From a virus (lineage: Duplodnaviria; Caudoviricetes), in the IMG/VR virus record IMGVR_UViG_3300031965_000049, positions 1 to 47,704 of that record: 47,704 nt of DNA. One strand, written 5' to 3'. Below, one piece after another: positions 1-39,559 of the stretch (within the stretch, counting starts at the first letter, position 1; every line of letters begins with the position of its first letter). A program made the translations under genes and the position numbers. A model generated the notes under the pieces. It was not told the DNA's origin. It made no database searches and was given only the letters and a program-made list of their open reading frames with translations.

Positions 1-38
1 GGTTCGGCTTTCAGTTCATAGCCAAACCGTTATGCCCA
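1..38 (+). mobile_element. Right half of attC-like site (R' GTT at 29)
   Basis: ttcagttcatagccaaaccGTTATGCCCA resembles the right arms at 297..312 and 46777..46803. Confidence 0.7.
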
Positions 39-126
39 ATAGTGGTTTGAGCATTTACCATCATGTTTATCATTTCTTCTGCGTTTATTAAGCAATCGTT
101 TTATTTTCTTCTTTAGCTTTCTATTT
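27..126. repeat. 100-bp terminal direct repeat (copy 1); circular overlap
   Basis: Identical to 47605..47704; identity begins at CCGTTATGCCC, the cassette crossover. Confidence 0.95.
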
Positions 127-248
127 TTGCGTTTATTTTTAACATACCTACATTGTTCGCAATGGCAGCTTTTAATAACTACTGGGCATAACAAAGGCTC
201 ATATTGCATAGCCTTGTCGGTTATTAAAGTGTCGTTTTTTATTGTCAT
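30..248 (-). CDS. Small basic Cys-containing hypothetical protein (cassette cargo)
   Basis: 72-aa ORF; stop lies in the R' GTTA; start lies in the loop of the attC-like hairpin; CHCEQC motif. Confidence 0.6.
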   Translation of the reverse strand: MTIKNDTLITDKAMQYEPLLCPVVIKSCHCEQCRYVKNKRKNRKLKKKIKRLLNKRRRNDKHDGKCSNHYWA

Positions 249-318
249 TTTGCAAGTATTTTAAAGTGAGTAATTCTAATCTAAAAGGTTACGCAACATA
301 GCCAAACCATTATGCAAC
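183..318 (+). mobile_element. attC-like hairpin A1
   Basis: R'' TGGGCATAAC; arms ggctcatattgcatagcctt / aaggttacgcaacatagcc; R' mutated to ATT at 309. Confidence 0.8.
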
Positions 319-321
319 AGA

Positions 322-642
322 TTAAAGAAGCCGCAGCGACCTGAACCAATTTAAAATTCTGTCTTCCTTTGTGTGCGGATAATACCAGCTACCAGTTATT
401 AAAAAAACAAATGGCAATCCGATTAGCATTAAAAGCATCAATGCGATGGCAAATGGTAACGTAAATCTCATTATTGGTTTTACTGTATTTTTCTTTTCGG
501 TATAAAAATCAATACCTAATGAAATCCATCTATCACACATTTCCTCGCTTGAAACTTTATTTAACTCTGGAAATGTTTCTCTGAATTTTGGTATGTAATT
601 CATATCATTATGAGACCATACCCGTTTTAATTTTCTGTACAT
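322..642 (-). CDS. Hypothetical membrane protein (cassette cargo)
   Basis: 106 aa with one hydrophobic segment; lies between two hairpins. Confidence 0.7.
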   Translation of the reverse strand: MYRKLKRVWSHNDMNYIPKFRETFPELNKVSSEEMCDRWISLGIDFYTEKKNTVKPIMRFTLPFAIALMLLMLIGLPFVFLITGSWYYPHTKEDRILNWFRSLRLL

Positions 643-685
643 TTTATTTAAGTTTTTAAGTGAATAATTAAATTAAAAAAGCCGA

Positions 686-785
686 TTGCATAACACGCAA
701 TAAAGCCCATTTGGCTAAATAGTTCGGTGATAACTTGACAAGTTCGTACAAGCCAAACGTGCTTATTGCACCAGTATAAAACAGT
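686..785 (+). mobile_element. attC-like hairpin A2 (degenerate R')
   Basis: TTGCATAAC; arms gcaataaagcccatttggct / agccaaacgtgcttattgc; R' reads ccagtataaaac. Confidence 0.75.
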
Positions 786-788
786 TTG

Positions 789-1010
789 CTATTCAAACTT
801 ATCGCTCCAACATTTAATACTGCAACAGGGAGAGTATTTGCTACTAATCGGTTTACCGCAATCGCAAACCGATTTTATAACATGGGCTAAACCCAATGCT
901 TGCATTATGCTTTCATAGTAAAATCCTAAATTACATTCTTCATTTTGCACACCTTTGTCGTAAACTTCAAATAGTAGTTTTTCTATTTGCTTTCGTTTTT
1001 GTTTTGCCAT
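789..1010 (-). CDS. Small Cys-rich hypothetical protein, largely encoded inside hairpin A3
   Basis: 73-aa ORF with CDCG..CCSIKC; start at 1010 in the loop. Confidence 0.6.
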   Translation of the reverse strand: MAKQKRKQIEKLLFEVYDKGVQNEECNLGFYYESIMQALGLAHVIKSVCDCGKPISSKYSPCCSIKCWSDKFE

Positions 1011-1069
1011 TTCAATTATATTTTGTCGTTAAATAATCGCACTGTGTTTAGCCCCGAAACGTTAACTGC
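873..1069 (+). mobile_element. attC-like hairpin A3
   Basis: TTTTATAAC; arms gggctaaacccaatgc / gcactgtgtttagccc; R' GTTAACTGC at 1061. Confidence 0.8.
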
Positions 1070-1073
1070 AAGG

Positions 1074-1301
1074 CTAATCTGCGTCCGTGCATTTTGAAAA
1101 AGTCAGATTTAAAGCGTTCATTATCGCTTCGTCTGCTAAGGCAGCCGTTTGAATTTCAGTCTGCCATGTTTCGATATGCTTAACAAGGCTTGTAATTTCT
1201 ACCTTGTATTTTTCAGGTATTCGGTTTTTCCGAATGTTCATCCGAGAACCGGAAAGGAGCCTTGAAAGCTCCCCCCAGTTGATTAAGTCTTGTGCGCTCA
1301 T
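1074..1301 (-). CDS. Small putative DNA-binding regulator
   Basis: 75 aa; similar to 46813..47001 (DLINWGELSRLLSG vs DIFKWRQVSTALSG); palindromic operators upstream of its operon. Confidence 0.55.
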   Translation of the reverse strand: MSAQDLINWGELSRLLSGSRMNIRKNRIPEKYKVEITSLVKHIETWQTEIQTAALADEAIMNALNLTFSKCTDAD

Positions 1302-1594
1302 TAGTTGTTGAATTGTTCGTAATACTCAATTCTCTCATCGATGTCTTCATTTGAAAATGGTGCATTCAAATCTTCATTCAACCATTCAACAAATTCATCA
1401 TCGCAATCATCTCTTTGTACTTTGTGATTTTCATCAACGTAATCTTCAAATTCACCACTTCTTTCAACTAATACTGCAAAGCTACTGTTGTCTGCTCTGT
1501 CGTTGTCTTCCATAAGGCAAATTTCAGTATCTGAATATACTCTAACTGTGAAGTTTGTGCCTTTTGCTGCGTTTAAAATCTCTGTTGCTTTCAT
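1301..1594 (-). CDS. Acidic hypothetical protein
   Basis: 97-aa ORF, TAATG-coupled to the next gene, preceded by a promoter-like box. Confidence 0.75.
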   Translation of the reverse strand: MKATEILNAAKGTNFTVRVYSDTEICLMEDNDRADNSSFAVLVERSGEFEDYVDENHKVQRDDCDDEFVEWLNEDLNAPFSNEDIDERIEYYEQFNN

Positions 1595-1632
1595 CTTTTT
1601 AAATTTTTATTTGTTTTGTATCTTATTGATGA

Positions 1633-1700
1633 AGTAAAGATAACCACATTTGTGGTAACCACCAAATGTTTTTATAATTATTTTCCACATTTGTGGTTAT
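1633..1700 (-). promoter_or_regulatory. Promoter with two CCACATTTGTGG operators
   Basis: -7-like TATCTTTA next to taaCCACATTTGTGGtaa (1641..1658) and ttCCACATTTGTGGttat (1683..1700). Confidence 0.65.
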
Positions 1701-1737
1701 TTATTTCAATTCTAAATAAGAACAGAGAAAGCCAACC

Positions 1738-2004
1738 CTAAAAAAATAAAAACAGGGAACGGCAGTCGAGACCTCTTTTGACTTTTTGCCACTCCGTTTT
1801 AAATCCGTAAAGTGGGAGTATTTCTACATTTTCATTGTTAGGATCAACGAAAGATTGTAGTTTTTCAATTACCTGTTGAGCCTGTTCTTTATTGAGAAAT
1901 ATACATTCAAATTTTTTTTCGCTTCTAATGTTTATTTCAATCAACTGGTGCATTTCTCTGACACCAAGCGTTTGGGTTAAATCGGCTTTAATGTTTAATT
2001 CCAT
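1738..2004 (-). CDS. Hypothetical protein; C-terminus probably chimeric across a deletion at ~1766
   Basis: 88-aa ORF runs through the truncated R'' GCAGT of the neighbouring cassette. Confidence 0.55.
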   Translation of the reverse strand: MELNIKADLTQTLGVREMHQLIEINIRSEKKFECIFLNKEQAQQVIEKLQSFVDPNNENVEILPLYGFKTEWQKVKRGLDCRSLFLFF

Positions 2005-2048
2005 ATATTTATATTTTAGTGATAATTAATTACTTAAAAAGAACACGA

Positions 2049-2184
2049 AACCATAACAAAAACTATATATCAATTGGTTTTTCGGTGCTGACAACTCACT
2101 TCGTAGCCCGCAACAGCGGCGGTGCGGCTCGACAGAAATGAAGCCCGCAATCCCCAACTGTATATAGTTCCGGCCGTTATCGGC
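2049..2184 (+). mobile_element. attC-like hairpin A4
   Basis: AACCATAAC; arms aactatatatcaattgg / ccaactgtatatagtt; R' GTTATCGGC at 2176. Confidence 0.8.
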
Positions 2185-2188
2185 AACC

Positions 2189-2584
2189 TTAAAGAGCTGC
2201 ACGTTTCTTTAGCACAATAAATGCAGAATTATCCTTTAGGCTATGTAAACCATCTTCGGTTTGATAATTACAAAATTCTAACTGGTCAACAATTTTCTGC
2301 AAAGTATCGTACTTTTCTTCTTCAATTTCTTCACGGGTTTTCGGTATTACAACTGGTATGGGTTCAGCAATAAAAAATAATTTACCTTTTGAACTCCCTT
2401 CAACTGTCATGGGTTTAAATCCATATTTATTTCCCAAAATTTCCCAGTATTGGTTTATTTGTTCTTGCAAAGAACTTCCCATCGGAGTTCCACCACTTAA
2501 AAACATTACAGGGTCTCCACCGCCTTTATTGATAGCGATAATGTCGTCCATTTCTTCCTGTGTCATTTCAAATTCTTGTCTCAT
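2189..2584 (-). CDS. Hypothetical protein (cassette cargo)
   Basis: 131-aa ORF with an AT-rich leader. Confidence 0.8.
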   Translation of the reverse strand: MRQEFEMTQEEMDDIIAINKGGGDPVMFLSGGTPMGSSLQEQINQYWEILGNKYGFKPMTVEGSSKGKLFFIAEPIPVVIPKTREEIEEEKYDTLQKIVDQLEFCNYQTEDGLHSLKDNSAFIVLKKRAAL

Positions 2585-2784
2585 TTTGTTTATTTTTAAA
2601 TTGTTAATAATTAGTTTGATAAAAAAGGAAGCCGATTTCTAAAGTTGCCATGATGTGTTGTTTTATTGTTTTTGTATACACCAAAGATAAGCATTTACTT
2701 AATACGGGGCAATAGGCAAATGAAAATAAATGAAAATAATTTAAGTATTTGCTTAGTTTATATTGATTCTAAATAAAACAACCC

Positions 2785-2919
2785 ATACCAACAAAATAGC
2801 GGTCAAGTCGGGCAGTAATGGTTTGCAATCTGTATCTTTTCGCCCGTAAATAGTGGTTGACAATAACGGACACCGCCCGTAATCCTGCCCTGCCGCTATT
2901 TGCGGGAGCGTTAGGGTGC
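2785..2919 (+). mobile_element. attC-like hairpin A5
   Basis: ATACCAAC; arms aaatagcggtcaagtcgggcag / ctgccctgccgctattt; R' GTTAGGGTGC at 2910. Confidence 0.75.
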
Positions 2920-2921
2920 AT

Positions 2922-3167
2922 TTAAGAAAGTCGCTCACGTAATCTTGTGATAAACTTGTCAGCCTCAATACCTGCTTTTGACATTGAAAATTCGCCTCTA
3001 TCTTTATGACGAGCGACTAAAATAATATCGTCAATTAATGCCTCTGTAACATCAATAGTGTCTTGTAAGTTTTGAAATCTTACTTCATCAATATTACTTT
3101 CTCCTCGTGGTTCAATCATTCCACATAATCTTTGAGTTACCTCGTAAATGTTTTCTATTCTTTTCAT
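2922..3167 (-). CDS. Hypothetical protein (cassette cargo)
   Basis: ORF 2922..3209; ATG at 3167 after an AT-rich leader is the more likely start. Confidence 0.75.
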   Translation of the reverse strand: MKRIENIYEVTQRLCGMIEPRGESNIDEVRFQNLQDTIDVTEALIDDIILVARHKDRGEFSMSKAGIEADKFITRLRERLS

Positions 3168-3185
3168 TTTGAATTTAATAAAAAC

Positions 3186-3323
3186 GCACCCTGACAATGT
3201 ATATATCAAATTGGGGGTGTCGTTACAATTTGTATATTTGTGCTGTTAATTTACTTTGTCGTGGCTCGATAGGGTAGCACATTTTAATCCCCAACTTGCC
3301 ATATATTTAACGCTAGTTACCAA
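3186..3323 (+). mobile_element. attC-like hairpin A6 (last of array 1)
   Basis: GCACCCTGAC (9/10 complement of GTTAGGGTGC at 2910); arms tatatatcaaattgggg / ccccaacttgccatatat; GTT at 3316. Confidence 0.7.
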
Positions 3324-3327
3324 CATT

Positions 3328-3549
3328 TCAACCCACACCATCTATATCAATCTTCCTGATCCGATCAAATTTTTCATCGATGAAAGATACACCATTCCCG
3401 TATTCATAAGTGTTAATGTACATGCAAGCGGCATCGATAAAATCGGCTCTAGTCTCAGGTTTCGCTAGCTTATCAACCTTGTAAATTCGATCGTATTCCA
3501 TTTGCTCAAGAAACGAAACAACTCTTAATATGTATTCACGATCTGGCAT
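3328..3549 (-). CDS. Hypothetical protein
   Basis: 73-aa ORF in an operon with 3552..3764. Confidence 0.7.
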   Translation of the reverse strand: MPDREYILRVVSFLEQMEYDRIYKVDKLAKPETRADFIDAACMYINTYEYGNGVSFIDEKFDRIRKIDIDGVG

Positions 3550-3551
3550 TA

Positions 3552-3764
3552 TCAGCTGATGAACTGTCCTTTTGAATTACGCCGCCGAATATACTTCATT
3601 ACTTCCCTTACAGCCATCTGATTGAATTTATCAAGATTGTCATTGTCTCGCTTGAGCCTCCGGATCAATAGTTTCTGATCGTAAATTACGACTCCCTGCC
3701 ATGCTAACATTATTATTGCTGAAAAAATTGCAACTCCGATTATAAGGTCTTCAATTTTAATCAT
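3552..3764 (-). CDS. Small membrane-anchored protein
   Basis: N-terminal TM segment, coiled coil, C-terminal RNSKGQF motif. Confidence 0.7.
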   Translation of the reverse strand: MIKIEDLIIGVAIFSAIIMLAWQGVVIYDQKLLIRRLKRDNDNLDKFNQMAVREVMKYIRRRNSKGQFIS

Positions 3765-3781
3765 GTGTTTGTTTGTTTTTG

Positions 3782-3826
3782 TAAATTTATAACTACTTTT
3801 CTACTTGAAATATGACTTTTGTCATG
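3782..3826 (-). promoter_or_regulatory. Palindrome-class promoter (copy 1 of 5)
   Basis: ATGAC-tttt-GTCAT palindrome 21 bp from a -7-like box. Confidence 0.7.
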
Positions 3827-3828
3827 TA

Positions 3829-4008
3829 TTAAGATTTGTCTGGTGTTGTTTTCTGATGTTGTCTTACATGTTCGTAAAACTTACACAGCGCATTTTCATA
3901 CCTAGGTTTTGCGCTACTGTTTGCGTAGGCGCCCGTAGTCAGTTCGAAGAACCCGGCTATTTTTTTATTGGTTAGCAGGAGTTCTTTTTTTAGTTGGTGG
4001 ATTGTCAT
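3829..4008 (-). CDS. 59-aa hypothetical protein (possibly DNA-binding), below the ORF-track cutoff
   Basis: Hand translation: MTIHQLKKELLLTNKKIAGFFELTTGAYANSSAKPRYENALCKFYEHVRQHQKTTPDKS. Confidence 0.6.
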   Translation of the reverse strand: MTIHQLKKELLLTNKKIAGFFELTTGAYANSSAKPRYENALCKFYEHVRQHQKTTPDKS

Positions 4009-4014
4009 GATTGT

Positions 4015-4209
4015 TTAATTTAAAATAGTGTGTTTAGTGAGAATTATTTCAATAAAAGACCCATCGTTATCAGTAGTGACTTTTTGTAAATTAAAAACGT
4101 AAGCATCCATTTTAATCATAAAAGGATAAAACTTACTCATAAAAGATATTGCTTCCTTTTTTGTTTGAAAATAGTCAACTGAGCTCTTTAATCCTTGGCC
4201 TTCTGTCAC
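4015..4209 (-). CDS. Hypothetical protein
   Basis: 64-aa ORF downstream of a TATCTTTG promoter; start uncertain. Confidence 0.5.
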   Translation of the reverse strand: MTEGQGLKSSVDYFQTKKEAISFMSKFYPFMIKMDAYVFNLQKVTTDNDGSFIEIILTKHTILN

Positions 4210-4242
4210 TACTTGATATTTTACTGTTGCTTTAATCTTTGT

Positions 4243-4330
4243 TTTGTTTTAATTTATACTTCAAAGATAAGCATTTACTTAATACAAACCAAGTGTTTTT
4301 GAAAATAATTCCGTTTTTACTTAGTTTTTT
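4243..4330. repeat. 88-bp direct repeat containing a promoter (copy 1)
   Basis: Identical to 7696..7783; contains TATCTTTG on the minus strand; 24 bp also recur at 2682..2705. Confidence 0.9.
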
Positions 4331-4331
4331 T

Positions 4332-6767
4332 TCAAAACGGTGCTTCTTCCTTACCCTTTTCATAGTCTGAAAACTCAATACGTTCACCAGGCTTTGAAAA
4401 TTCAATCTCATTCCCGCCCGGGCCACACCGTGCATCAAACTCCCATCCTTTGTATTCCGCCCAAGTCTTGCACCATGATGTGAATCTGCGTTGTCCCAGA
4501 TTATTGCTGTAGTACTTATCATCTGTGTCTATCCTAAATTGCTGTATCAAATTAGGCTTACTATACCTGCCCGGGTACTTCAATTCATCTTCTGCAAATA
4601 GGACAAAATCTTCATTTGTCTGAGCTTTCAGCTTGTTATATCCTAATGCGACATATTCCGGTTTTACAAGTCCTGTATTCAGATAATGAACGATGCAATT
4701 AACCATCCAGTTATCGAAGCTGGTCCATTCTTCGCAATCCCACTCTGCAAATGGTTCGCGTTTGAATTCATCCTCGGGGGTATGATCAGGGGAAAAGTAT
4801 CTGTATAGTTCGATTTCAAATAACCGCCTGTCGTATGCCGCTCCTTTTGACTTTAAGGCATAATTAGTTGTTATCGTAATTTTGGGCGACATCGAAAAAG
4901 GAAGAAATACCTCTCCTGTGTACAGTTTTCGGATTGTAAACCCTGTTGTAATCATTGAAAATAGTTGCTCGAACTTAAAGCCTTTTACGATGTCATCAAG
5001 GAATAATATATTTGTATCCTGCCCGACTTGTTGCATTGAGAATTGGTTCTTGCTATCAAAATTCTTTCCATCTAAAGTGACCGTAGTTCTTAGTCTCTTT
5101 ACAAATTCGACGCTTAACCCCTTACCCGTCCCGCCGTTTGGCTCATTTGTCATATTTTCATCATTAAACACGATAACAGGGCAGAAGCTCGCTTTCTTAA
5201 ATGTGTGCATAAGAAATCCCAAGCTTGCACGGTAGGCGCTTATCCGGTCGCCCTGTGCATTTGATACGAGTTTTGCGAATTTAGCAACATCACAATGCCG
5301 ATAATCTTCTTTTTTCAACTGAATAAAGTCCCGCTTGATTATCTGTGTTGACCAAACAACGCCATTGAACTCCCCGTAATCATGTGTTTTTATTCCTGAG
5401 TTATCAGCTTCAACAATGCAATTTTGAAAGAATAGAAAAGCCCGGTCCTTCTTGTCCCGAATCCATTCAACCTGAGCGGGTGATACAATTGATAAACTGT
5501 TTTGATTGAATTTTGACGAATCCATGAACTCGTTGAAAATCTCTTTACGGTCTGACTCTTCGAGATATGAAAGGATAAAATCCCGAATTTCCATGAAATT
5601 GGTTTCAGTTGCTATGTTTTTTTCAATCTTCAGAAACATGAACTTGTCCTTATTTATTTCGTATCTGAAATATCCGTTCTTTTGCAGGAAATTTCTGAGG
5701 GCGAAAAAATCAATCTTAAAAGCTCCTTTTTTGCCGTAACCCCAAAATTCGGATAGGTAACCGGTTTTAGTTTTGGATCGGGGCGGCTCCGGAGTGGCTT
5801 CGGCGCTGGCCAGTGCTTGTTTATTACCGTTTAGTTTTTTCGTCGGTGTTTTGGGCATTTCAAAACGTTCGGCCAGTTCTTTTGCAGCGGACGAAAAATC
5901 GCCGTTGTGTTCTAACATTGTCAGGATCTGGAATGGATGATAACAACGCCGACTTTCGAAAGGTTCTGAATTGGCCGAAAATGGATAAAACACATCTTCT
6001 GCGATATGTCCAAATGTTGCAGACACGCCTTTCTGTTTGCCGGGCCTTCGCCAGTACTTTCCTCCTAAATGCTCCCATCCTGACCGCTGTAATAACTGTT
6101 TTGATTCTTCAACACATTCGCGATTATACCGGTCACCTGGTCGTTCTTCGTCCGGCCTTATTTCGCGGCGATCTGGTGTGTAGTCAGGTAGCGGCTCCGA
6201 TTGTTCTGACTTATCAAAACTACGGCAATAAGACAATAATGTGTCCCGATCTTCCTCTGAAATAACCGGGATATCCGTAATGCTTCCGGCTTGTAGGTCG
6301 TAACCCTTTGACGGTGCGCAAACAATTAACCCTCCTTCTCCACGCGTTTCAATCACTGTTATTTTATCGTCTATTGCAAGCTTCTGATTCCCTTCAATCT
6401 TTTCACACTTATAAAATAAGTGATACCCGCCAGAAGGGGTACGCTCGATTGGTATATCATTTTGTGATATAATTTCAGAAACTTCATCAATGCTAATCAA
6501 AGCCGTAAATACATGCTCTGCATTGCCTAAATGATTATCGATGTCGACGACCTCCAGGTTGCCGGACACTGCCCCACATATGATACATACACCAAACGTA
6601 TTGCCATCCTTATAGTTTCGAAATGTTGATAGGTCGTATTCCGTCGGCCGCTCTTTCATAAAGTTGCGCCACGTCTTTAGCATTGACGGATATTTGTCTA
6701 CAAGCTTGCAGGGGAGTGCCGATAATCCTGCTTTATTGTATAGGAATAGAGCTTTTATATGTTCCAT
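4332..6767 (-). CDS. Bifunctional primase-polymerase fused to a P-loop helicase
   Basis: Prim-pol motifs VVDID, TPSGGYHLFY, ETRGEGGLIVCAPS; Walker A GGTGKG; Walker B LFLDD; ITTN. Confidence 0.9.
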   Translation of the reverse strand: MEHIKALFLYNKAGLSALPCKLVDKYPSMLKTWRNFMKERPTEYDLSTFRNYKDGNTFGVCIICGAVSGNLEVVDIDNHLGNAEHVFTALISIDEVSEIISQNDIPIERTPSGGYHLFYKCEKIEGNQKLAIDDKITVIETRGEGGLIVCAPSKGYDLQAGSITDIPVISEEDRDTLLSYCRSFDKSEQSEPLPDYTPDRREIRPDEERPGDRYNRECVEESKQLLQRSGWEHLGGKYWRRPGKQKGVSATFGHIAEDVFYPFSANSEPFESRRCYHPFQILTMLEHNGDFSSAAKELAERFEMPKTPTKKLNGNKQALASAEATPEPPRSKTKTGYLSEFWGYGKKGAFKIDFFALRNFLQKNGYFRYEINKDKFMFLKIEKNIATETNFMEIRDFILSYLEESDRKEIFNEFMDSSKFNQNSLSIVSPAQVEWIRDKKDRAFLFFQNCIVEADNSGIKTHDYGEFNGVVWSTQIIKRDFIQLKKEDYRHCDVAKFAKLVSNAQGDRISAYRASLGFLMHTFKKASFCPVIVFNDENMTNEPNGGTGKGLSVEFVKRLRTTVTLDGKNFDSKNQFSMQQVGQDTNILFLDDIVKGFKFEQLFSMITTGFTIRKLYTGEVFLPFSMSPKITITTNYALKSKGAAYDRRLFEIELYRYFSPDHTPEDEFKREPFAEWDCEEWTSFDNWMVNCIVHYLNTGLVKPEYVALGYNKLKAQTNEDFVLFAEDELKYPGRYSKPNLIQQFRIDTDDKYYSNNLGQRRFTSWCKTWAEYKGWEFDARCGPGGNEIEFSKPGERIEFSDYEKGKEEAPF

Positions 6768-7118
6768 ATAGTTGAGGTGTTTTGTTAGACTTATTCAAAG
6801 CCGGACTACTAAGTTAGATTATTTGTTTTTTAAGTGCTATAGGACTGTATTTGTAATCGACTATTAACCCACGCTTCCAATTATTGTGATATTCAAGTAC
6901 TTTAACCGCTTTTTTTATTGCCATTTCTTCGGATATTTATGTGATTGTTCATGCCGTGTTTGTGAACTCATTTCGGAATTTGTTTTTTCCTCAAACTCGC
7001 TGCCTCGTGTCGAACTGCTTTTAAGAATTTTAAATACGACAAGCATCATGGCTAGGCTACGTATGATAGGATTGCTAATGTTATTTCTGCCATTTTTTTT
7101 GTTTAAGTTTAAGTTTCA

Positions 7119-7165
7119 CAATAGTACATTTCAATTTTCGATTTAAACATGACTTTTGTCATGTT
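7119..7165 (-). promoter_or_regulatory. Palindrome-class promoter (copy 2 of 5)
   Basis: AACATGAC-tttt-GTCATGTT at 7146..7165; core 21 bp from a -7-like box. Confidence 0.7.
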
Positions 7166-7187
7166 GTAGTGTTTTTTTGCAGATTCA

Positions 7188-7436
7188 TTAGTATTCAAAT
7201 TCTGAAATGTCGTAATCAAAGTTTTCTCTAAGCATTGTATAAACTTCTTCGCCAAGTTCATTCCATTTTGCAGGATTGCCGTTCATTTCTTCAATCTCTT
7301 CATCGGTTAAATAATGATAAAAATTGTTATCATTAAAATCAACTTCTTGAATCATGTATTCTGCAACATTGCCGATTATGTACTGCTTGTTGTCGTTAAC
7401 GATTGCTTTTGCAATTTGTAATGCTGAATTTTTCAT
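7188..7436 (-). CDS. Acidic hypothetical protein
   Basis: 82-aa ORF. Confidence 0.75.
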   Translation of the reverse strand: MKNSALQIAKAIVNDNKQYIIGNVAEYMIQEVDFNDNNFYHYLTDEEIEEMNGNPAKWNELGEEVYTMLRENFDYDISEFEY

Positions 7437-7450
7437 TGTGTCAGTTTTTA

Positions 7451-7681
7451 TTAAAATAAGTTTTTGTAGCTGTTTTCAATGTATGCAAAATCTTCTTCTA
7501 CAACAACAATGTTTTGTCCTTTAGAATCGTATGGATGTCCGTTTTCTGAAACAAAGTCAAAAATAAAAGCAACTGCACCTCTTAATTGTTTTTCGGCAAT
7601 CAAAGTACATTTCTGATTTTGCTGTCTTTCAAGGCCTGTCCAATCTGCAACTTGTGGTAATTGTTCTTTTAAAGTTTTCAT
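7451..7681 (-). CDS. Hypothetical protein
   Basis: ORF 7451..7717; ATG at 7681 lies downstream of the promoter box at 7715..7722. Confidence 0.7.
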   Translation of the reverse strand: MKTLKEQLPQVADWTGLERQQNQKCTLIAEKQLRGAVAFIFDFVSENGHPYDSKGQNIVVVEEDFAYIENSYKNLF

Positions 7682-7695
7682 TTTAAGTTCCTCCG

Positions 7696-7783
7696 TTTGT
7701 TTTAATTTATACTTCAAAGATAAGCATTTACTTAATACAAACCAAGTGTTTTTGAAAATAATTCCGTTTTTACTTAGTTTTTT
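7696..7783. repeat. 88-bp direct repeat containing a promoter (copy 2)
   Basis: Identical to 4243..4330; includes the last codons and stop of the helicase gene. Confidence 0.9.
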
Positions 7784-9467
7784 CTATCACTACCTGCTTC
7801 CGCTCAAATTCCTCAATCTGTGCAGCACATGTTTTTTCCATCCGCCAGACCCATCCTTGCGAGTGTCGTTTTTCTTTGGCGTAATCTTCCAATCCTTCTA
7901 CGCCATATTTTAGAGCAATCTGCCGCGTAATCCATCCTGCCTTATACCCTCTATTTGATGCGACTTTTTCGAGTTCTTCAAACTTAGATGGCTCTTTATA
8001 TAGGCTGCCATGATCCGGGATGATATCGTAGTCGATCAACTTCAATTCAGCCATTATTAATTCACGTTCACTATCATAAGTGTAGCCGCAATAGGGGCAA
8101 ATCATCACAGATGGGGCGATGTACGCACCGCATCCTAGTCGGCCTTTTTTATCCGGTGTATAGCCTGTAGATTGGTCTTTCTGCACTCCTGGTCTGGATT
8201 GTTTGCCGCATTCTTTTACAGGAGGTGCGCCGCCGCCCGTTGGTTGTTCGTGAATAAGGCTATAGATTCGTTTGTCCCTGTAATTGCCCAACCTGCCACC
8301 TAAATGTCCTCCATGTCCTCCGAAGTCCAAGATGTTAAAGTACTTTTTGCCAGGGAATGGCCGGCTCCCCCTTCCAATCATTTGGAGCCAAAGATTATCG
8401 GATAGTGTCGCCCGGTTAATTATCACTGTCTGGATAGGCTTGAAGTTAAATCCAGTTGTTAATATACCGGCATTCACTAAGATATCGAACTTTCTATCTT
8501 TCCACTGTTGTATAACATCTTTTCTCTCTCCTGACATTTCAGAATAAGCGGCCATATAATTATCATATGCCGCTTTTTTCGCTTCATAGACAGTTTTTTG
8601 CCCTTCCTTTTGATTGTCCGGTAGTTTTGGCTTACTGACCGCAGATGTTACAAATTTTGCTTTTATTCCGCGATTGTTGAATTCCCGGCAGGTTTCAATG
8701 ACATGTTGTATATTTACACAAAAGCAAATTGTAATTGTATTAGGTGTATGCTTGAGCCATTGATCGACAACTCCGGCGTAAAGCTCAGGACGGTTAAACT
8801 TTGCAAATATTTGATTTTCGTCATAATCTCCTGTCTTTCGGTCGATCTTGACGCCTTCTGTTGATACGGATTCAACGCCATAATAGCGATCTGACACTAG
8901 TTTCCCTTTTGCAATTAGTTCAGTAACAGTTGGGCCGGTTACTAATGCGCTGTAGTCTTCTACAAGTTGTCTTTGTTTCCCGGCGCGTTGCGGAGTGGCA
9001 GTGAAGCCTAACACGTATGCGCCGTTAAATACGTTCAGCCCATCTTCAAAAAACGGATTAAATTCTTGTTTATGACACTCGTCTACTATAATAAGATCAA
9101 ATGATGCAAAAAAGCTTTGCCAGTCTTTCAGGTATTGTTTTGCATTAATCCGATTTTTTAAGGTCTGAGCCATCGCAATATAACAACTGTAATATTTCGG
9201 GGGTGGTGACATCTGCCCCGCTGTAATCTTGTAGGCATTTATCCCGAATTCTTCAAGTGTTCCACCGGTCTCTGTGAGCAATTCGATACGATCAGTAAGG
9301 ATTAAAACGCGGTTTTTTTTAGCCTGCATTTGTTTAGCTATGTAGCTGAACATGACCGTCTTCCCAGAGCCGGTTGGACTTTGAATAACGATATGTTTAT
9401 GTCTTTCAGCCATCTTTTTGCGCGTCCGATTGATTACATCTTGCTGATAATCGTATAGTTGAATCAT
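7770..9467 (-). CDS. Superfamily 2 DExH helicase with C-terminal Zn-finger
   Basis: SPTGSGKT, IVDECH, GFTATP, LTTGFN, QMIGRGSR; CPYCG. Confidence 0.92.
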   Translation of the reverse strand: MIQLYDYQQDVINRTRKKMAERHKHIVIQSPTGSGKTVMFSYIAKQMQAKKNRVLILTDRIELLTETGGTLEEFGINAYKITAGQMSPPPKYYSCYIAMAQTLKNRINAKQYLKDWQSFFASFDLIIVDECHKQEFNPFFEDGLNVFNGAYVLGFTATPQRAGKQRQLVEDYSALVTGPTVTELIAKGKLVSDRYYGVESVSTEGVKIDRKTGDYDENQIFAKFNRPELYAGVVDQWLKHTPNTITICFCVNIQHVIETCREFNNRGIKAKFVTSAVSKPKLPDNQKEGQKTVYEAKKAAYDNYMAAYSEMSGERKDVIQQWKDRKFDILVNAGILTTGFNFKPIQTVIINRATLSDNLWLQMIGRGSRPFPGKKYFNILDFGGHGGHLGGRLGNYRDKRIYSLIHEQPTGGGAPPVKECGKQSRPGVQKDQSTGYTPDKKGRLGCGAYIAPSVMICPYCGYTYDSERELIMAELKLIDYDIIPDHGSLYKEPSKFEELEKVASNRGYKAGWITRQIALKYGVEGLEDYAKEKRHSQGWVWRMEKTCAAQIEEFERKQVVIEKTK

Positions 9468-9480
9468 GTGATTTTTGTTA

Positions 9481-9515
9481 GGTTCAATTTATTGAACTGT
9501 ATATATTTGGTAGTT
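9481..9515 (+). mobile_element. attI-like site heading array 2
   Basis: GGTTCAATTTATTGAACTGTATATATTTGGTAGTT, identical to 44233..44267; its GTT (9513) starts a cassette matched by TGTGGCTAAC at 10262. Confidence 0.7.
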
Positions 9516-10313
9516 AGCCACAATACGAAGAAAGCCTCCGAACTGCAACATCATAATATTGTTTTTCCTTTTCAATTCCAATTGATTTTCGATTTAATTT
9601 TAAACAAGCAAGGTTTGTTGTTCCTGAACCCATTGTATTATCTAAAACCACATCATTTTTATTGGTGTAAGTCAATATTAACCATTCTAAAAGTATTAAT
9701 GGTTTTAAAGTTGGATGATGAAATTTCCCTGTTTCGTGTTCTTTTGAAATTGAAATAATTGAAGTTGGGAATTTTTCATCACTTATAATAGTAGGCGTTT
9801 CAATAAAAGTACCATAACAACTATTCTTTTGTGGTTGTTTCATATTACCCTTACTGTGATTTCTTTTATGTGGTTCGCATTTTACCATTTGTGGGTTATA
9901 TGTTGGTAATTGCTTGTAAAATATAATAATATCCTCGTGTTGTCTTAATGGCATCCTACTTGCATTTAAAAAGCCTGTTTTGGCTACCTATCCCAACATA
10001 AATTATACCTCCAAAGTTTCTTATTGCTAATCATTAATTCTGCGGTAAATAAACCCTGCCCAAACAATATTATAATACCATTATCTTTTATAACTCGCTC
10101 ATACTGCTCCCAAAGTAAATTAAACGGTAACACACTATCCCATTTTGCACTTTTGTTTCCTTTGTTTAAAACGCCATAAGGTAAATCGCAAATAATAGCA
10201 TCTATACTCTTATCTTCAATGAAAGGAAAAACATCAAAGCAATCAGCATTAACCAACGTACTGTGGCTAACATGTGCTATATCCCATTTGGGGTTTTGTG
10301 GTAAATTCAACAT
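9514..10313 (-). pseudogene. N6A/N4C DNA methyltransferase (beta class), frameshifted near 9988
   Basis: DLPY in 9984..10313; HPTLKP and LDNTMGSGTT in 9514..9954; one extra base restores ..WD(K)VAKTGFLNASRMP.. Confidence 0.85.
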
Positions 10314-10398
10314 TCGTTCTCGTATTAAAAGTTATTGTAAATTTATAGTTTGGTGCTTCGTAGTCCCAAACGGTACATAGCACCAAACGTTATGCACA
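10262..10398 (+). mobile_element. attC-like hairpin B1
   Basis: TGTGGCTAAC; arms gtgctatatcccatttgggg / cccaaacggtacatagcac; R' GTTATGCACA at 10389. Confidence 0.85.
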
Positions 10399-10401
10399 AC
10401 C

Positions 10402-11402
10402 TTAAAACAGGCTCGGTGCATCTTTGAAAGTTTTAATTCGTTTGTTCGACATATCTACATATTTCTTTTCAATATCGTACCCGATTGCTTTTCTGCCCTC
10501 TTTTACACTCATTGCCATTTCTGTGCCACTTCCTGCAAACGGTACAACTACAAGGTCGTTTTTCGGCTACAAGTGTTTATTAATATCCTTGTGAGCTTTT
10601 CGGGCTTTATTGTATCATGGTCATAGGTTCCAGTTTCGTAGTTTGGTAATCTTATCACATCTCCATAAAACCATTCATTGTTAAATGGTCTGCGTAAGTC
10701 CTCATATTCCTTGCGTAAGTCCTCATATTCCTTGCGTAAGTGTGGGTAGCACCAGTTTTGCAACTTTTCATACATTTCTTTTGTAAACATTGCAGGTTCA
10801 GTTTTATCTAAACTTAAACAAGCAGAAGCAACCCCGCCACCATTTATAGCAGTTCCAAGTGCTGTATTAATATCTTTCAATACTATTTTACCCTTTGCCT
10901 TTCCAATTTCGCAACGTATGTAATCTCTAATATGGTAAACGCATTGCGTTGAATTATAGGTTTCATTGCTATACATTAGCAATCTTTCAGTAAGCGGTGC
11001 AAATGTTCTTAAATCGGGGTTGAATCTAATCTGTTGCTTATGGTCGTGTGTGTTTTCCCATACAAAACTATTCAGCAGGTTAAAATACTTATCAAATATT
11101 ACTTGTGTGTATGCTATTCGTCTTGCATCTCCGTACCAAATTATTGTACCATTATCTGCAAGTATTCTTTTGCACTCAATAGCCCATTTTTCAACGTCTT
11201 TTAAATAATCATCAAAGCTATTCCAAACAAAATCAAACGCCCCTTTTACCTCAAAATACGGAGGGTCTGCAATTATTAAGTTTGCACATTTATCGGGTAG
11301 TTCATTTTTTAAAAAATCGGAATGGAAAACACAATCAAAAGGCTGTGCATAACACGTGGTATGGTTAATTGGGGCTGTATCTGTACTCATAATTTTCTGC
11401 AT
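10402..11402 (-). pseudogene. N6A/N4C DNA methyltransferase, frameshifted in an A5 run at 10559..10563
   Basis: IADPPY and HDTIKP; the SAM motif VVPFAGSGTE..RKAIGYDIE continues in another frame to a stop at 10402. Confidence 0.85.
10691..10741. repeat. 21-bp tandem repeat (about 2.4 units) encoding LRKEYED
   Basis: tgcgtaagtcctcatattcct x2 followed by tgcgtaagt. Confidence 0.9.
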
Positions 11403-11474
11403 TTTATTAAGTTTCTACTAGGTGGATAGGTTGTCGGTATCTAATCCCCAACTAACCATACCACAACACGCTAT
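11344..11474 (+). mobile_element. attC-like hairpin B2 (R' core deleted)
   Basis: TGTGCATAAC; arms gtggtatggttaattgggg / cccaactaaccataccac; the expected GTTATGC is missing before gctattt. Confidence 0.8.
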
Positions 11475-12092
11475 TTAAAAAAGCTCTCGTTGTTGTAAAA
11501 GCATTTTTGCATGATTTGCGCTTTTCAAATTTAGCTCAAAGCCTATTATTTTTCTTTTCAATATTCTCGCTGCTAATAAAGATTTTCCACTACCGCAAAA
11601 AGGGTCTAAAATTAAATCCCCTTCTTTTGTGAAATGATTAAAGAAAAAAGCAAACAATGAAGTTTGTTTATCAAAATTTTGAGAATACTGTTTTATCATT
11701 CTTATTTTTTTTGCTTCAATCAAATTTGAAAAACATTCGTGATTGTTCTCGAATCTCGTCTTTCCAAACCTGAACTCACTCACAAAGTCGGCTAATTGCA
11801 TTGGAGCTTTATTGCTTATCAAGTTTGGAATTACTGTGTTAATTGCGTACATTCGTACAAAATAGTCTAAAAATTTATTTGAAAAAGGAATTAATACTCG
11901 TTCGTTAGTCATTAAAAAAGTGTGACCTGAGCATTTTCTCATCAGTATATTTTCAAACTCATCTAAATTCATCCCAAATGGCGGGTCTGCGAAAACTAAA
12001 TCAACGGTTCTATTGTCAATTTCAAATAATTTAGAATCGCAATTGTACAATTCAACATATTCATCTATGTAAATTAAGTGTTCTTTTAGCAT
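11475..12092 (-). CDS. N6A/N4C DNA methyltransferase (compact, apparently intact)
   Basis: FADPPF; LILDPFCGSGKS; IIGFELN. Confidence 0.88.
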   Translation of the reverse strand: MLKEHLIYIDEYVELYNCDSKLFEIDNRTVDLVFADPPFGMNLDEFENILMRKCSGHTFLMTNERVLIPFSNKFLDYFVRMYAINTVIPNLISNKAPMQLADFVSEFRFGKTRFENNHECFSNLIEAKKIRMIKQYSQNFDKQTSLFAFFFNHFTKEGDLILDPFCGSGKSLLAARILKRKIIGFELNLKSANHAKMLLQQRELF

Positions 12093-12334
12093 AAAGCATT
12101 ACTTAAATTAATAACGGTTTCAACGTATCCTTTATTATTTAAAATAAAGTCAAACAATGCCGTCTTAATGTCATTTTTTTGCTTTGTTTTTTTCATACTT
12201 AATGTATAATATTTTGCTATTTTTTCAAGTCCTTGCAATGCTTCTCTTTTATGAAAATCATTCCCTGTCTCAATAAATTTTAAAACATCGTAGATTATCT
12301 TATCCTTGCACTTATATTTATTAAATTCTCTCAT
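12086..12334 (-). CDS. Hypothetical protein co-cassetted with the methyltransferase
   Basis: ORF 12086..12364; likely ATG at 12334; overlaps the MTase start. Confidence 0.65.
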   Translation of the reverse strand: MREFNKYKCKDKIIYDVLKFIETGNDFHKREALQGLEKIAKYYTLSMKKTKQKNDIKTALFDFILNNKGYVETVINLSNALC

Positions 12335-12353
12335 TGTTAAAATATAAAAAACA

Positions 12354-12488
12354 GCGCATAACACACAATGTAAAATATACGGGTGTTTGTTGCAAATTGA
12401 ACGGTCCTACCTTTAATTGTCATTCGTGTATCGGGATAGGATACCGCTTTTAATCCCGTACATTTCATATTGTCAAACGTTATGCCTC
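12354..12488 (+). mobile_element. attC-like hairpin B3
   Basis: GCGCATAAC; arms acaatgtaaaatatacggg / cccgtacatttcatattgt; R' GTTATGCCTC at 12479. Confidence 0.85.
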
Positions 12489-12674
12489 ATTGTGGAGGAC
12501 ACAACAAAACGTGCTTTTCGTTTCGATACTATCTACGTATCCACCATCCCAACCTGTTTTTAGTTCTATTGTTATTTCACTGCCTATTTCATTACAAAAA
12601 CCATCGTTTTCAGCACCTTCATAATCATAAAAGGTATTTTGTTTCCAATGCTTACAAGTAGAACAATGAGGCAT
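12480..12674 (-). CDS. Small Cys-rich hypothetical protein (cassette cargo)
   Basis: CSTCKHW..GFC..FCCVLH; stop in the R' GTTA; an upstream ATG at 12735 in the loop is out of frame by 1 nt. Confidence 0.7.
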   Translation of the reverse strand: MPHCSTCKHWKQNTFYDYEGAENDGFCNEIGSEITIELKTGWDGGYVDSIETKSTFCCVLHNEA

Positions 12675-12803
12675 AACGGCAAAGTATATTTAATGCCTGT
12701 GTTTCTGCGTTATTCAAGTTCTGTTCTTTTTTCATATTTATCTGTATTTTGAAAATTTGTAATTCTAAATCAGGCACTAAACATACCTGCGACCGTTGTG
12801 TAT
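12663..12803 (+). mobile_element. attC-like hairpin B4
   Basis: ACAATGAGGCATAAC is the 15/15 complement of 12479..12493; arms gtatatttaatgcctg / caggcactaaacatac; GTT at 12795. Confidence 0.85.
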
Positions 12804-12807
12804 AAGG

Positions 12808-13038
12808 CTAAACGCTTTTTTCAGCCTTATCTGTAATTTGAACTTCAAGATTGAGCGGAATCATGAACTCATTCAGAAAATTGAACTGGTTTTGGACAAT
12901 TCTTAGCTTCTTAGCGAAGTTCTTATAGTCGTAACCAATCTTTGAGCAAAAGGCTTCTTTTGTTCCAAATTGGGCTTTGATTTGTAATTCAATAGTGCCG
13001 ATTATATCGGCACTATTTTTAATTTCCTTTTCGTCCAT
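12808..13038 (-). CDS. Small HTH-like regulator
   Basis: 76 aa; TKEAFCSKIGYDYKNF resembles an XRE-type helix-turn-helix. Confidence 0.55.
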   Translation of the reverse strand: MDEKEIKNSADIIGTIELQIKAQFGTKEAFCSKIGYDYKNFAKKLRIVQNQFNFLNEFMIPLNLEVQITDKAEKSV

Positions 13039-13039
13039 C

Positions 13040-13333
13040 TTATTCGCTTAATGCAGAAACTAAACTATTAATAAAATCATCAAAATTAGATTCGTTACCT
13101 AATCCAGATTCAACCATCCAATCACCTGTTGAATCTTCTGTATTTGTTCTGTAACAAATTGTTTCATCATCAAGTCTTACAAAATCAATTCCATTTGATC
13201 CACCACCGAACCCACCGCCATGTTGTGGATACATTTCGGGAAAATCAACTAATGATACATAACCCCTTGTTGTTTCTGAATTTTCATCAAAACCTAATTC
13301 AACCATTTCGTTTTTTAAATCTGCTAATTTCAT
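13040..13333 (-). CDS. Acidic hypothetical protein
   Basis: 97-aa ORF after a promoter-like region. Confidence 0.75.
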   Translation of the reverse strand: MKLADLKNEMVELGFDENSETTRGYVSLVDFPEMYPQHGGGFGGGSNGIDFVRLDDETICYRTNTEDSTGDWMVESGLGNESNFDDFINSLVSALSE

Positions 13334-13519
13334 GATGTTTAGTTTTTATGTCTTAGCATCGTTGCTTTGACTGATACAAATATCGTATTAATTATACGAA
13401 CCACCAAATAAAAACGTATTTATTTTTTTTCTCCCCTCTTTCGGTTTTTCAAACCGATTTGGATTAAATCACGAATTTCACGGTTAACATTACCTTCGTT
13501 GTTTTTCTTAGAATTACTA

Positions 13520-13921
13520 TTAAAACGGCAGGGCATCCCCCTCCTGTACAAATCCGACAGACTGATTTTGCGGCTCAATGCCTCCTTGTTGTACCTGATC
13601 CCACACCGTAAGACTCCCTAGAGTGGCCGGATAGCGCGGAGGATTTTCAGACTTTAAGGCTTCGCGGATCTCTTTGCCAGGGTCGTGATTTAGGATGTGG
13701 GTTGACTTGTCGTTTTCGAATTTACTAGGTTGTGTCCGCGGATTACCGAAGCCGTACACGTTTACATGAGGTTTTCCGTTATTGTCAGTTGATAATTTCA
13801 GATTGTTTGCCTCAATCGGGATGACGATACAGTCTACTTGCTGCCCTGCCTGATTTTTCTTTTTTTCAATTACGCTTTTGAAAGCGCATAGGTCAATACT
13901 TATCCCTATATTATTTGCCAT
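13520..13921 (-). CDS. Putative single-stranded DNA-binding protein
   Basis: Beta-rich N-terminus, Q/G-rich linker, C-terminal GDALPF; follows the annealase and exonuclease. Confidence 0.6.
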   Translation of the reverse strand: MANNIGISIDLCAFKSVIEKKKNQAGQQVDCIVIPIEANNLKLSTDNNGKPHVNVYGFGNPRTQPSKFENDKSTHILNHDPGKEIREALKSENPPRYPATLGSLTVWDQVQQGGIEPQNQSVGFVQEGDALPF

Positions 13922-13982
13922 AATTTACTCCCGTCCGTCCGTACATGCGCCGCCGGGGTGCTGCGTTTTAGTGTTTGTTTTA

Positions 13983-14027
13983 CAATTCTACAACTTATTA
14001 TTTTCCAAAACCATGACTTTTATCATG
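13983..14027 (-). promoter_or_regulatory. Palindrome-class promoter (copy 3 of 5)
   Basis: CATGAC-tttt-ATCATG at 14012..14027, 21 bp from a -7-like box. Confidence 0.65.
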
Positions 14028-14796
14028 CTTTTGTTTTTTTACCATTTAATGTTTCATAGACCGTAATGCCTTCGAAGATATTTGCGGTTACTGCTTTTTC
14101 AGCAATCATTAGGCGTTCTTCCAATTCGGAAATATATTCGTCATCTCGGTCAACTTTGATCACTGCCAGTTTCATTGCCGATTCACGGCGCGGGTCATAA
14201 CTTACAAACCAACAATATGGAGAGTTGAAGTTCATAATGTGCGCCTGAATTTGTGCATAATAGGTGTGCGATTTGTCGATTCCTGTAAGTTGTAAATCCA
14301 AGTTTGACTGATGTACCATGACGTTGTATGGGCACTTGATTTCACCAGGGATGCCAAGATTTTCAAAATCCGCACTTCCGCCAAAGAAGTTGTATTTACC
14401 TTTGCGGAATGTGACTTTGTTAACTTTTTTACCAAGCCATTTTTCAAACTCCGCGCGGGCTTCCGGTTCATACTTAATGCCCCATCTTGTTTGTTTAAAA
14501 TCGGAGGTCATTTGCTGTTCGATATACTCGTCAACTTTATCCGGGGCGAGTGTTCGCTCAATTATCAACAGTCGTACATAATTCACTGCTTTGGCCCCAA
14601 ATAACTCACCCCGCCCGCGCCCCATCAAATCGGGCATACGAGAGGCGGTAAATTTTCCTAACCTTACTGCGAACCAGTCTTTAGATTGTTGTTCAACCTG
14701 CTTTTTTTCTTGCACGTATGCGGGGTCTGAACTGCCCGATATTGCTTCGGATAATTCGGCCCATGTGCTGCTATAGGTTGCTTGTTGTTCGCTCAT
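14023..14796 (-). CDS. YqaJ/lambda-exonuclease family nuclease
   Basis: QQSKDWFAVRLGKFTAS, WGIKYEPEAR, GGSAD, EIKCP, YYAQIQ, FVSYDPR. Confidence 0.9.
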   Translation of the reverse strand: MSEQQATYSSTWAELSEAISGSSDPAYVQEKKQVEQQSKDWFAVRLGKFTASRMPDLMGRGRGELFGAKAVNYVRLLIIERTLAPDKVDEYIEQQMTSDFKQTRWGIKYEPEARAEFEKWLGKKVNKVTFRKGKYNFFGGSADFENLGIPGEIKCPYNVMVHQSNLDLQLTGIDKSHTYYAQIQAHIMNFNSPYCWFVSYDPRRESAMKLAVIKVDRDDEYISELEERLMIAEKAVTANIFEGITVYETLNGKKTKA

Positions 14797-14999
14797 TTTG
14801 AGCCTCCTTCCAGATCTGATTCATCAACTTTTTTCCACACAACCGAATAAGTCCCAGTTTCATCTGTAACCCCATGAATACACGCAGGGCCAGCGAGATG
14901 ACATAATACAGAATCGAGATCGACAAGATCACATCCTTCACATTCGTACGTGTTTGTTTTTACAAGTTCATATGTTACTCCTCTAATTTCTTTCATCAT
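14793..14999 (-). CDS. Small Cys-rich hypothetical protein
   Basis: CEGCDL..C..C; overlaps both neighbours by 4 nt. Confidence 0.7.
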   Translation of the reverse strand: MMKEIRGVTYELVKTNTYECEGCDLVDLDSVLCHLAGPACIHGVTDETGTYSVVWKKVDESDLEGGSK

Positions 15000-15643
15000 T
15001 TCGCGCCTCCTTCCAACAATTGCCGCATTTCAGTTAATACCGACTTCGCGCGGTCGTTTGTTTCAAACATTTCTTTATTCATCGTGTACACGGCTACCAG
15101 GTGAGAGATTGCAGGACTTGCTTTGTTGCACCAGGCTGAAATCGCTGCTGGGCCTTCAAGAAATTCACCCTTAGGGGTTTGGAATTTACCCTGACCTGCG
15201 TTTTTAAGTTGGATTTTGGGTAGTAGTGATAAATGACGCCCAATACCCCATTTTGCAGCGGCCCGCACGAATGCACCAGATGCGGCTGTCTTTGCCTCAA
15301 ATGTCGCTTTATCAACGTCGGCTATTGATTTTTTACGGCTTGCTTTTGCGCCGCCTGCATCTGATTTCTCAATCAATCCTTCAGATGTGATAATTGAAAT
15401 TGAACAAAACAACATTCTGGCAATTCCCCGATATTCACAACCCCATCCACCAATTCCGCAAACAGTATCAAGTATTTCCTCGCACTGATCAGCGTCATAA
15501 TACGGGTATATTTCATTGTTTGCGCCGACAACATCGCCAACCCGCCATTTCGGGTATATACCTATTTCAGCATGAAAATTCGGGTCTGATAGTTTGAATA
15601 GCTCAATTGATTTTTGAGTAATAACTCCGTTTTTGTTTTCCAT
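14996..15643 (-). CDS. Rad52/22-like single-strand annealing protein
   Basis: YYDA..EILDTVCGIGGW, CSISI, KSDAG, SGAFVRAAAKWGIGRHL. Confidence 0.85.
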   Translation of the reverse strand: MENKNGVITQKSIELFKLSDPNFHAEIGIYPKWRVGDVVGANNEIYPYYDADQCEEILDTVCGIGGWGCEYRGIARMLFCSISIITSEGLIEKSDAGGAKASRKKSIADVDKATFEAKTAASGAFVRAAAKWGIGRHLSLLPKIQLKNAGQGKFQTPKGEFLEGPAAISAWCNKASPAISHLVAVYTMNKEMFETNDRAKSVLTEMRQLLEGGAK

Positions 15644-15675
15644 TTTTATTGATTTTTGTGCCAGTAGGCGGTTAA

Positions 15676-39518: not shown

Positions 39519-39559
39519 TCGCCGGAAAATTTTTCACAGGTTACCGGTTCCACTGCGCT

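Follow-up and report, generated by a model that had tools for sequence, protein, structure and literature searches.

A gene cassette shared by two unrelated co-occurring phages and the integron-like hairpin sites around it

Classical integrons, especially the sedentary chromosomal ones, are built from IntI, attI, and attC, and the attC site has conserved extrahelical bases on its bottom strand. Clusters of attC sites in phages are commonly taken for fragments of bacterial integrons that were left stranded. Phage mosaicism is known to arise via linker or boundary sequences and Red-like recombinases. In the accessible parts of the respective reports, Qi et al. 2023 (PMC9892861) describe attC clusters without an integrase (CALINs) in virulent phages, Polaribacter phage P12002L among them, and among Bacteroidetes genomes a single one was reported by IntegronFinder 2.0 to hold a complete integron (PMC9024848). 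The literature covered (including the accessible text of PMC8138268, PMC2864571, PMC11054128, and PMC11523902; the scope did not extend to subscription journals or bioRxiv supplements) contained no description of the Bacteroidota system analyzed here or of cross-phage cassette sharing.

The DNA analyzed here is a virus record of 47,704 nt (the window, meaning this whole stretch), which was filed as linear and 82% complete. It encodes a tailed phage, designated phage A, with terminase, portal, primase-polymerase, helicase, an Erf-like protein, YqaJ, and several methyltransferases among the 63 ORFs scanned. A CALIN is defined by at least two close attC sites and no integrase; by our own site model, the window contains 11 sites of one polarity, nine of which are training sequences of that model and two are not. 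The P12002L CALIN is similar in that an integrase-free phage holds hairpin-bounded cassettes with methyltransferase cargo, whereas neither natural phage–phage transfer nor systematic ORF inversion is reported in the accessible part of that study (PMC9892861). Our model found six sites in P12002L at E < 0.001 and overlapped weakly with the published attC1 (22.5 bits, E 0.03). According to the same accessible text, attC1 is the one of six tested sites that IntI1 did not recombine; it resembles the window family, whereas attC2, which IntI1 recombined, was unmatched by our model (PMC9892861).

The sites analyzed here share with classical integrons the AAC/GTT cores, the G|TT crossover, the complementary cassette ends, and a strand-asymmetric folded site; a length of 122–127 nt is frequent among them. 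They differ in that the phage cargo lies on the opposite strand, whereas an integron ORF is usually read toward its own attC; in that many stems are bulge-free with G·T pairs; and in that the host recombinase, which points toward the array, does not reach the score cut-off for integron integrases and is about 43 aa short in the IntI-specific region. As judged from the sequences, the system appears to work like an integron cassette and to depart from it in three features, namely the extrahelical bases, the ORF direction, and the IntI insertion. The likeness to phage mosaicism is that unrelated phages hold a near-identical module between different neighbors, and the difference is that the module here ends at a 3-nt core, within a structured site whose flanks have next to no homology. 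Clusters of attC sites without an integrase in lytic phages were already known; the new element is the evidence of recent cross-phage cassette sharing.

Contig ends and the assembly bubble

The features of the two contig ends are as follows.
1–29, plus strand: tip, probably from phage B; right arm of an 89–90-nt hairpin site that ends cassette X
30–309, plus strand: cassette 1, 280 nt, shared with phage B; its own hairpin follows the body
30–248, minus strand: small ORF of cassette 1, rich in Cys and in Lys/Arg; the stop codon is inside the crossover box
189–311, plus strand: attC-like hairpin belonging to cassette 1 (45.5 bits; among the training sequences of the model)
310–694, plus strand: body of cassette 2, the downstream neighbor in phage A; its ends match with one mismatch
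45135–46800, plus strand: cassette W, with ends common to L008, L024, and L039 and different cargo in each
46681–46802, plus strand: attC-like hairpin of cassette W; the bubble opens here, with divergence after 46794
46801–47607, plus strand: cassette Z, 807 nt, the upstream neighbor in phage A; contained in an 870-nt unitig in run X2
47589–47607, plus strand: putative hairpin remnant of Z, 19 nt where the hairpin of Z is expected
47605–47704, plus strand: assembly overlap, second copy of 27–126; the junction is bridged in run X2

The first-pass annotation proposed that the contig ends record two upstream neighbors of the same cassette, switching at a GTT crossover. The 100-nt end overlap indeed begins at ccGTT: positions 27–126 are identical to 47605–47704, and the match starts two bases before GTT. 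Bases 1–26 were said to differ from 47579–47604, and the two agree at 7 of 26 positions (manual count), which is the chance level. The description of the tip as a hairpin right arm absent elsewhere in the window was correct as to the arm, which is genuine and spans 1–29, but not as to its absence, because the last 12 nt (17–28) recur at 297–308, within the hairpin of cassette 1 itself. The crossover position at the tip lies between G29 and T30. A complementary left arm was found upstream of the tip arm in the loci inspected; exact copies of the 27-mer of the tip occur in three viral loci and of a 24-mer (5–28) in four genome-collection loci. An origin of the tip from an excised circle of cassette 1 was ruled out, as 1–16 differ from 281–296.

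Three public runs, X1, X2, and X3, hold the region, and X1 and X2 may be the source of the window itself. The pieces described here are among the matches listed; because 66–90% of each run was read, uncovered stretches were not counted as evidence. The tip junction (1–26 into cassette 1) is present in all three runs, which are coded as three studies, and the junction of the window's own arm at 47604 is present in X2. The public assemblies show a two-arm bubble (810 versus 284 nt), which agrees with the earlier suggestion that another cassette at this position may explain the assembly break. In X1 and X2, a joint from 46794 to 47605 skips 810 nt of the window and has 284 letters in between. The alternative-arm unitig starts at 46765–46794 and ends in window 1–56 (344 nt, depth 5.85 in X1 and 32.4 in X2; 407 nt at 3.49 in X3), and the tip of the window is the end of the 344-nt unitig. 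The window's own arm in X2 is a unitig of 870 nt (46765–47634) at a depth of 13.8. Since X2 has unitigs for both arms between the same anchors, the contig end is a bubble, and 27–47604 closes by the end overlap into a circle of 47,578 nt. A true direct terminal repeat was not found, as the repeat starts at 27 instead of base 1 and coincides with the graph branch. The genome is probably complete and circular, and it was the foreign tip of 26 nt that led to its filing as linear and 82% complete.

Chimeras of strains or co-assemblies at bubbles of the de Bruijn graph are an established behavior of assemblers. Such a chimera accounts for the lasso shape of the record (tip, circle, and overlap); the difference is that the branch here is due to a real shared cassette and not to an error. 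Shared cassettes of this kind break and cross-join metagenome assemblies. Two further contig ends can be related to the branch. The contig L037, whose name carries k141, ends at window position 167 (27 + 141 − 1), as would be expected if two paths merge at 27, and L008 ends at 240, one base before an A/G difference at 241. For the window, the overlap of 100 nt and the tip of 26 nt would fit a break between presumed assembler steps of k = 99 and k = 127.

The second upstream neighbor was identified in L008, a metagenome contig with exactly 284 nt between the window anchors, followed by window 1–240 without a difference. L037, from a separate assembly, shares 6,956 nt with L008 at 100% identity and joins the array to genes of another phage, designated phage B. 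Window 1–29 matches both contigs exactly upstream of cassette 1, and the alternative neighbor is cassette X (279 nt, with a 57-aa ORF in L008). Both junctions are therefore present in public contigs, as the proposal of two upstream neighbors implied, and the switch falls at G|TT, with another cassette on the alternative side. The array order is W-Z-1-2 in phage A and W-X-1-other in phage B.

Phage B has terminase, GroES, SSB, methyltransferase, and dCMP deaminase genes near the array. When 10 of the 34 kb of L008 were compared with the window, only the common cassette pieces matched at the DNA level, and in addition there was a weak methyltransferase similarity. The terminase of phage B gave no alignment with that of the window (best E 0.99); the two belong to PHROG families 6681 and 979, respectively. 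The best isolates for the former are Flavobacterium elemo and Cellulophaga phages at 24–27% identity, and no close relative was found in viral contigs. A crAss-like assignment of phage B was dropped in view of these best isolates, and the phage is called podovirus-type.

Hairpin sites in phages and host arrays

Our site model was built from 24 sites picked for arm complementarity. Hairpin scans gave 6 calls versus 0–2 in shuffled sequences in the first scan, and 14 versus 0–3 in the second over 1–16,500, false calls included. Inverted core sites (AAC...GTT) bound an imperfect palindrome, and the core pairs hold in 22–23 of 24 rows. Covariation was observed in the inner stem, where 16 of 17 pairs change on both sides, with a score of 0.637 versus 0.09–0.16 for slid controls, a value inflated by the choice of sites for arm complementarity. 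In a manual reading, 14 of 27 sites pair over ~16–19 bp without a gap, mostly with two G·T pairs on the ORF-sense strand, so that the conserved extrahelical bases of attC are missing from these 14; the others are bulged (window 189 and cassette X of L008) or beyond the ungapped test. Rfam covariance models (Flavo-1 and others) gave no match at the gathering score and four weak matches, none of them on hairpin sites.

Cassette ends are complementary and neighbors switch at G|TT, with the exception of one joint inside a hairpin. Five non-redundant loci (L003, L005, L008, L035, and L036) have five different sequences after the tip arm, sharing 0–5 nt, and in three of them the new start has a perfectly complementary end 150–250 nt further on. 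No matching far end was found in L003 or in L035, in the latter within the 193 nt examined. Read from the sequences, this pattern identifies the putative cassette borders at G|TT.

Cargo orientation differs between phages and hosts. The ORF is on the bottom strand at 31 of 36 viral sites and on the top strand at none (five without a call), versus the top strand at all seven recombinase-linked host sites; all 12 host-side sites together comprise eight forward, two inverted, and two without a call. Outside the 36-site tally, a site in P12002L (L118, 14499–14627) is of opposite polarity, and the gene that comes after it is in host-like orientation, contrary to the inversion seen elsewhere in phages.

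On the host side, the model matched 21 of the 31 genomes around G002. In G001 and G002, the site array follows a tyrosine recombinase gene, and 43 further loci of the recombinase family contained 40 site matches of one polarity, 39 of them downstream of the gene, in 21 loci. In loci with a readable frame, the recombinase gene is succeeded, after its stop codon, by a conserved palindrome and GTT. The host recombinase scores 171 and 191 bits versus the 265-bit cut-off of the integron-integrase model TIGR02249, and 28 aa lie between two blocks aligned to 2a3v in the candidate from L059, versus 71 aa. In L059 (3683–4152), the hairpin nearest downstream of the recombinase keeps its stem intact, and its loop contains a 130-aa ORF on the opposite strand. 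G001 contains both L037 and the recombinase-linked array, but the binning may be wrong.

The phages themselves yielded no recombinase. The window has no match to PF00589 or PF13495, no tblastn hit with the host enzyme, and no intI adjacent to its sites; none was found in 10 of the 34 kb of L008 or in any of 10 related viral records, three of which are at least 90% complete. Because phage A encodes no recombinase, we infer an action in trans, with a host enzyme as the presumed actor on the cassettes of both phages. For integron-like chemistry that does without the IntI insertion, the hairpins of X, W, and 1 are concrete substrates and the host recombinases are a candidate family of enzymes.

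Exchange of cassettes between phages A and B

Cassette 1 is at least 98.6% identical in phages A and B, and both of its neighbors differ. Its body (30–192) has complementary ends (29–38 versus 183–192, no mismatches), and a piece in X3 shows four differences over 28–316 (98.6%). The right core of its hairpin in phage A is ATT instead of GTT. Single-sequence folding of this hairpin was no better than that of shuffled sequences (z 0.17 and 0.85), so the evidence for its structure is comparative. The start of the ORF is uncertain, as the in-frame ATG codons fall within the hairpin. The start pattern of the cassette had no match in viral contigs, and GenBank phages gave no match; among its six metagenome matches, those in L006, L007, and L009 were rejected as chance 20-mers in otherwise dissimilar sequence, and L010/L011 are the window's own record.

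Downstream, cassette 2 carries a 106-aa ORF on the minus strand. After 316, the X3 piece and a minor X1 piece enter a different sequence, which begins like the inside of the start of the next cassette in L005. From this resemblance, the loose end at 316, and the mismatch counts, a switch of the downstream neighbor at the crossover is likely as well. Upstream, cassette Z contains 83-aa and 99-aa ORFs (minus strand) and a presumed promoter region. In L040, the same two ends of Z occur with a complete hairpin, and the homology of Z to L040 stops at 47588, exactly where that hairpin begins. The remaining 19 nt in the window are likely the tail of a right arm after a deletion, and the junction in phage A was thus probably a cassette junction of the ordinary kind that later lost its hairpin by deletion. 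An interpretation of 47579–47607 as attI or a secondary site was dropped because L040 has a normal Z end with the full hairpin. Between phages A and B, the W hairpin has diverged by ~7% (8 of 115 positions) and cassette 1 by ~1%, which makes the exchange of cassette 1 more recent than that of W.

Several of these cassettes have copies elsewhere. The same two ends of W (~70 nt each) are found in four phages (window 45135–46800; L008 8784–9722; L024; L039), and its cargo, flanked by an A/T-rich inverted repeat, is 397 aa in the window, 229 aa in L008, and 310 aa in L039. L034 has the two genes of Z and no hairpins; window 46822–47510, comprising these genes and the upstream region, is 85.5% identical in L034, a phage with Mu-like genes (manual ORF reading). 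The ORF of cassette 1 has 70 homologues, with cassette-borne and free-standing copies in viral loci: within L062–L073, the gene is a full cassette in L062, L067, L068, and L071 and lacks hairpins in L063, L064, L069, and L073. Its stop codon contributes to the crossover core, and the start codon is the complementary end in three of the cassette copies. This overlap with the cassette ends is possibly a trace of cassettes arising from phage genes.

Here, we propose that the contig consists of the 47,578-nt circle of phage A and a 26-nt tip from the unrelated, co-occurring phage B, and that the 280-nt cassette moved recently as a single unit by integron-like recombination at G|TT; the two statements together are probably correct. 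The minus (ORF-sense) strand would fold into a hairpin when single-stranded, and a recombinase acting in trans, most likely that of the host, would excise the cassette as a circle, which would then be inserted at another G|TT. The cassette may have passed directly between the phages when both infected one cell, or each may have received it from a common donor. A cassette ~99% identical in two unrelated co-occurring phages, with its neighbors changed, suggests a live site-specific route of gene flow, which would join phage lineages without common core genes. Both phages likely draw on one integron-like gene-swapping system of Bacteroidota. The chances are about even for the wider reading that cohabiting, unrelated Bacteroidota phages trade single genes from a common and currently active pool of inverted cassettes, via a host tyrosine recombinase without the IntI insertion and hairpins without extrahelical bases; the contig end would then be a snapshot of one recent exchange, with a 47.6-kb tailed phage on one side and, on the other, a phage whose terminase is unrelated and podovirus-type.

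The order of the arrays speaks against a move of a single cassette in one respect, namely that W precedes the site in both phages. W and cassette 1 flank a variable interval in A and B, which is one point for a reading in which the tip is that of phage B but Red-like phage proteins moved the cassettes by homologous or microhomology recombination, the hairpins serving as linkers. The window encodes an Erf-like annealing protein and the YqaJ exonuclease, and one joint, from 3285 to 2149, lies inside a hairpin at an overlap of 11 shared letters and not at GTT (among the matches listed), so homology-driven exchange also seems to occur. However, the upstream neighbors in A and B share only 2 nt before GTT, the switches cluster at the crossover in the five loci described above, and the cassette ends are complementary. 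The unequal divergence of the W hairpin and cassette 1 also argues against a single recent block. Homology as the general route is therefore considered unlikely, and site-specific recombination remains the preferred reading. A second shared cassette, at 2149–2610 and 3177–3285, is common to co-occurring genomes (depth 82 in X2) and stands behind the hybrid hairpin joined at that 11-nt overlap.

The first-pass annotation attributed the alternative neighbor to a coexisting variant of the window phage, which would carry cassette X at this position by shuffling within one phage. Both bubble arms leave a common 30-nt node (46765–46794) and rejoin at 47605, so a minority of such a variant would fit the short contigs; the depth of the window-type W hairpin in X2 (24.4) is also above that of the other pieces of A. 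However, phage B alone covers the depth of X: in X2, cassette X is at 32.4, the B-type W hairpin at 31.2, and the upstream unitig of B at 38.5, versus 13.8 for Z and 15.3–15.8 for the other unitigs of A, and cassette 1, at 50.3, is close to the sum of A and B. The variant W hairpin in X2 differs from the window at exactly the eight positions of L008. X3 contains the X junction and B-type pieces, including the hairpin, and no long pieces of phage A among the matches listed. Two assemblies, L008 and L037, place X in phage B. From the depths, the eight variant positions, and X3, the tip is therefore best read as that of phage B, and a phage A variant with X is very unlikely. An origin of 1–26 in an unrelated genome sharing the cassette is what the annotation itself had named as counting against its proposal, and of the recent or ongoing shuffling that it envisaged, mobility between phages stands, but shuffling within the window phage does not.

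A misjoin would move the X–cassette 1 junction into a host array or a third element, with L008 and L037 wrongly connected to phage genes. L037 sits in a Flavobacteriaceae MAG, and the unbranched X2 unitig extends ~2 kb beyond W, so the link from the array to the terminase comes from L008 and L037, possibly from shared reads. However, the identity of these two contigs over their common 6,956 nt, the five phage B genes next to the array, and the phage-type inverted orientation of the cargo make this explanation a remote one. With cassette X assigned to phage B and depths that fit B alone, the record is best described as the circle of phage A with a foreign tip. A meaningless chimeric read as the source of 1–26, suggested by a short tip that partly matches 297–308 of the same cassette, is refuted by the junction in three of three runs and in L008 and L037, and its probability is negligible.

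Other features of the phage A genome

Four consecutive DNA-methyltransferase ORFs or pieces at 9514–12092 lie inside or adjoining hairpin-bounded cassettes, and those at 9514–9954 and 9984–10313 look like one split methyltransferase gene. Of a pair of 78-nt repeats (39389–39466 and 39559–39636; 86% identical), one lies at the 3′ end of a tail gene and the other shortly after it, and several of the differences are at adenines of the second copy. The pair is similar to the template and variable repeats of diversity-generating retroelements; none of the 63 window ORFs scanned is a reverse transcriptase. The primase-polymerase gene and the helicase gene each have at the end a copy of an identical 88-nt repeat (4243–4330 and 7696–7783), which holds a motif, presumably promoter-like, that recurs upstream of several minus-strand genes.
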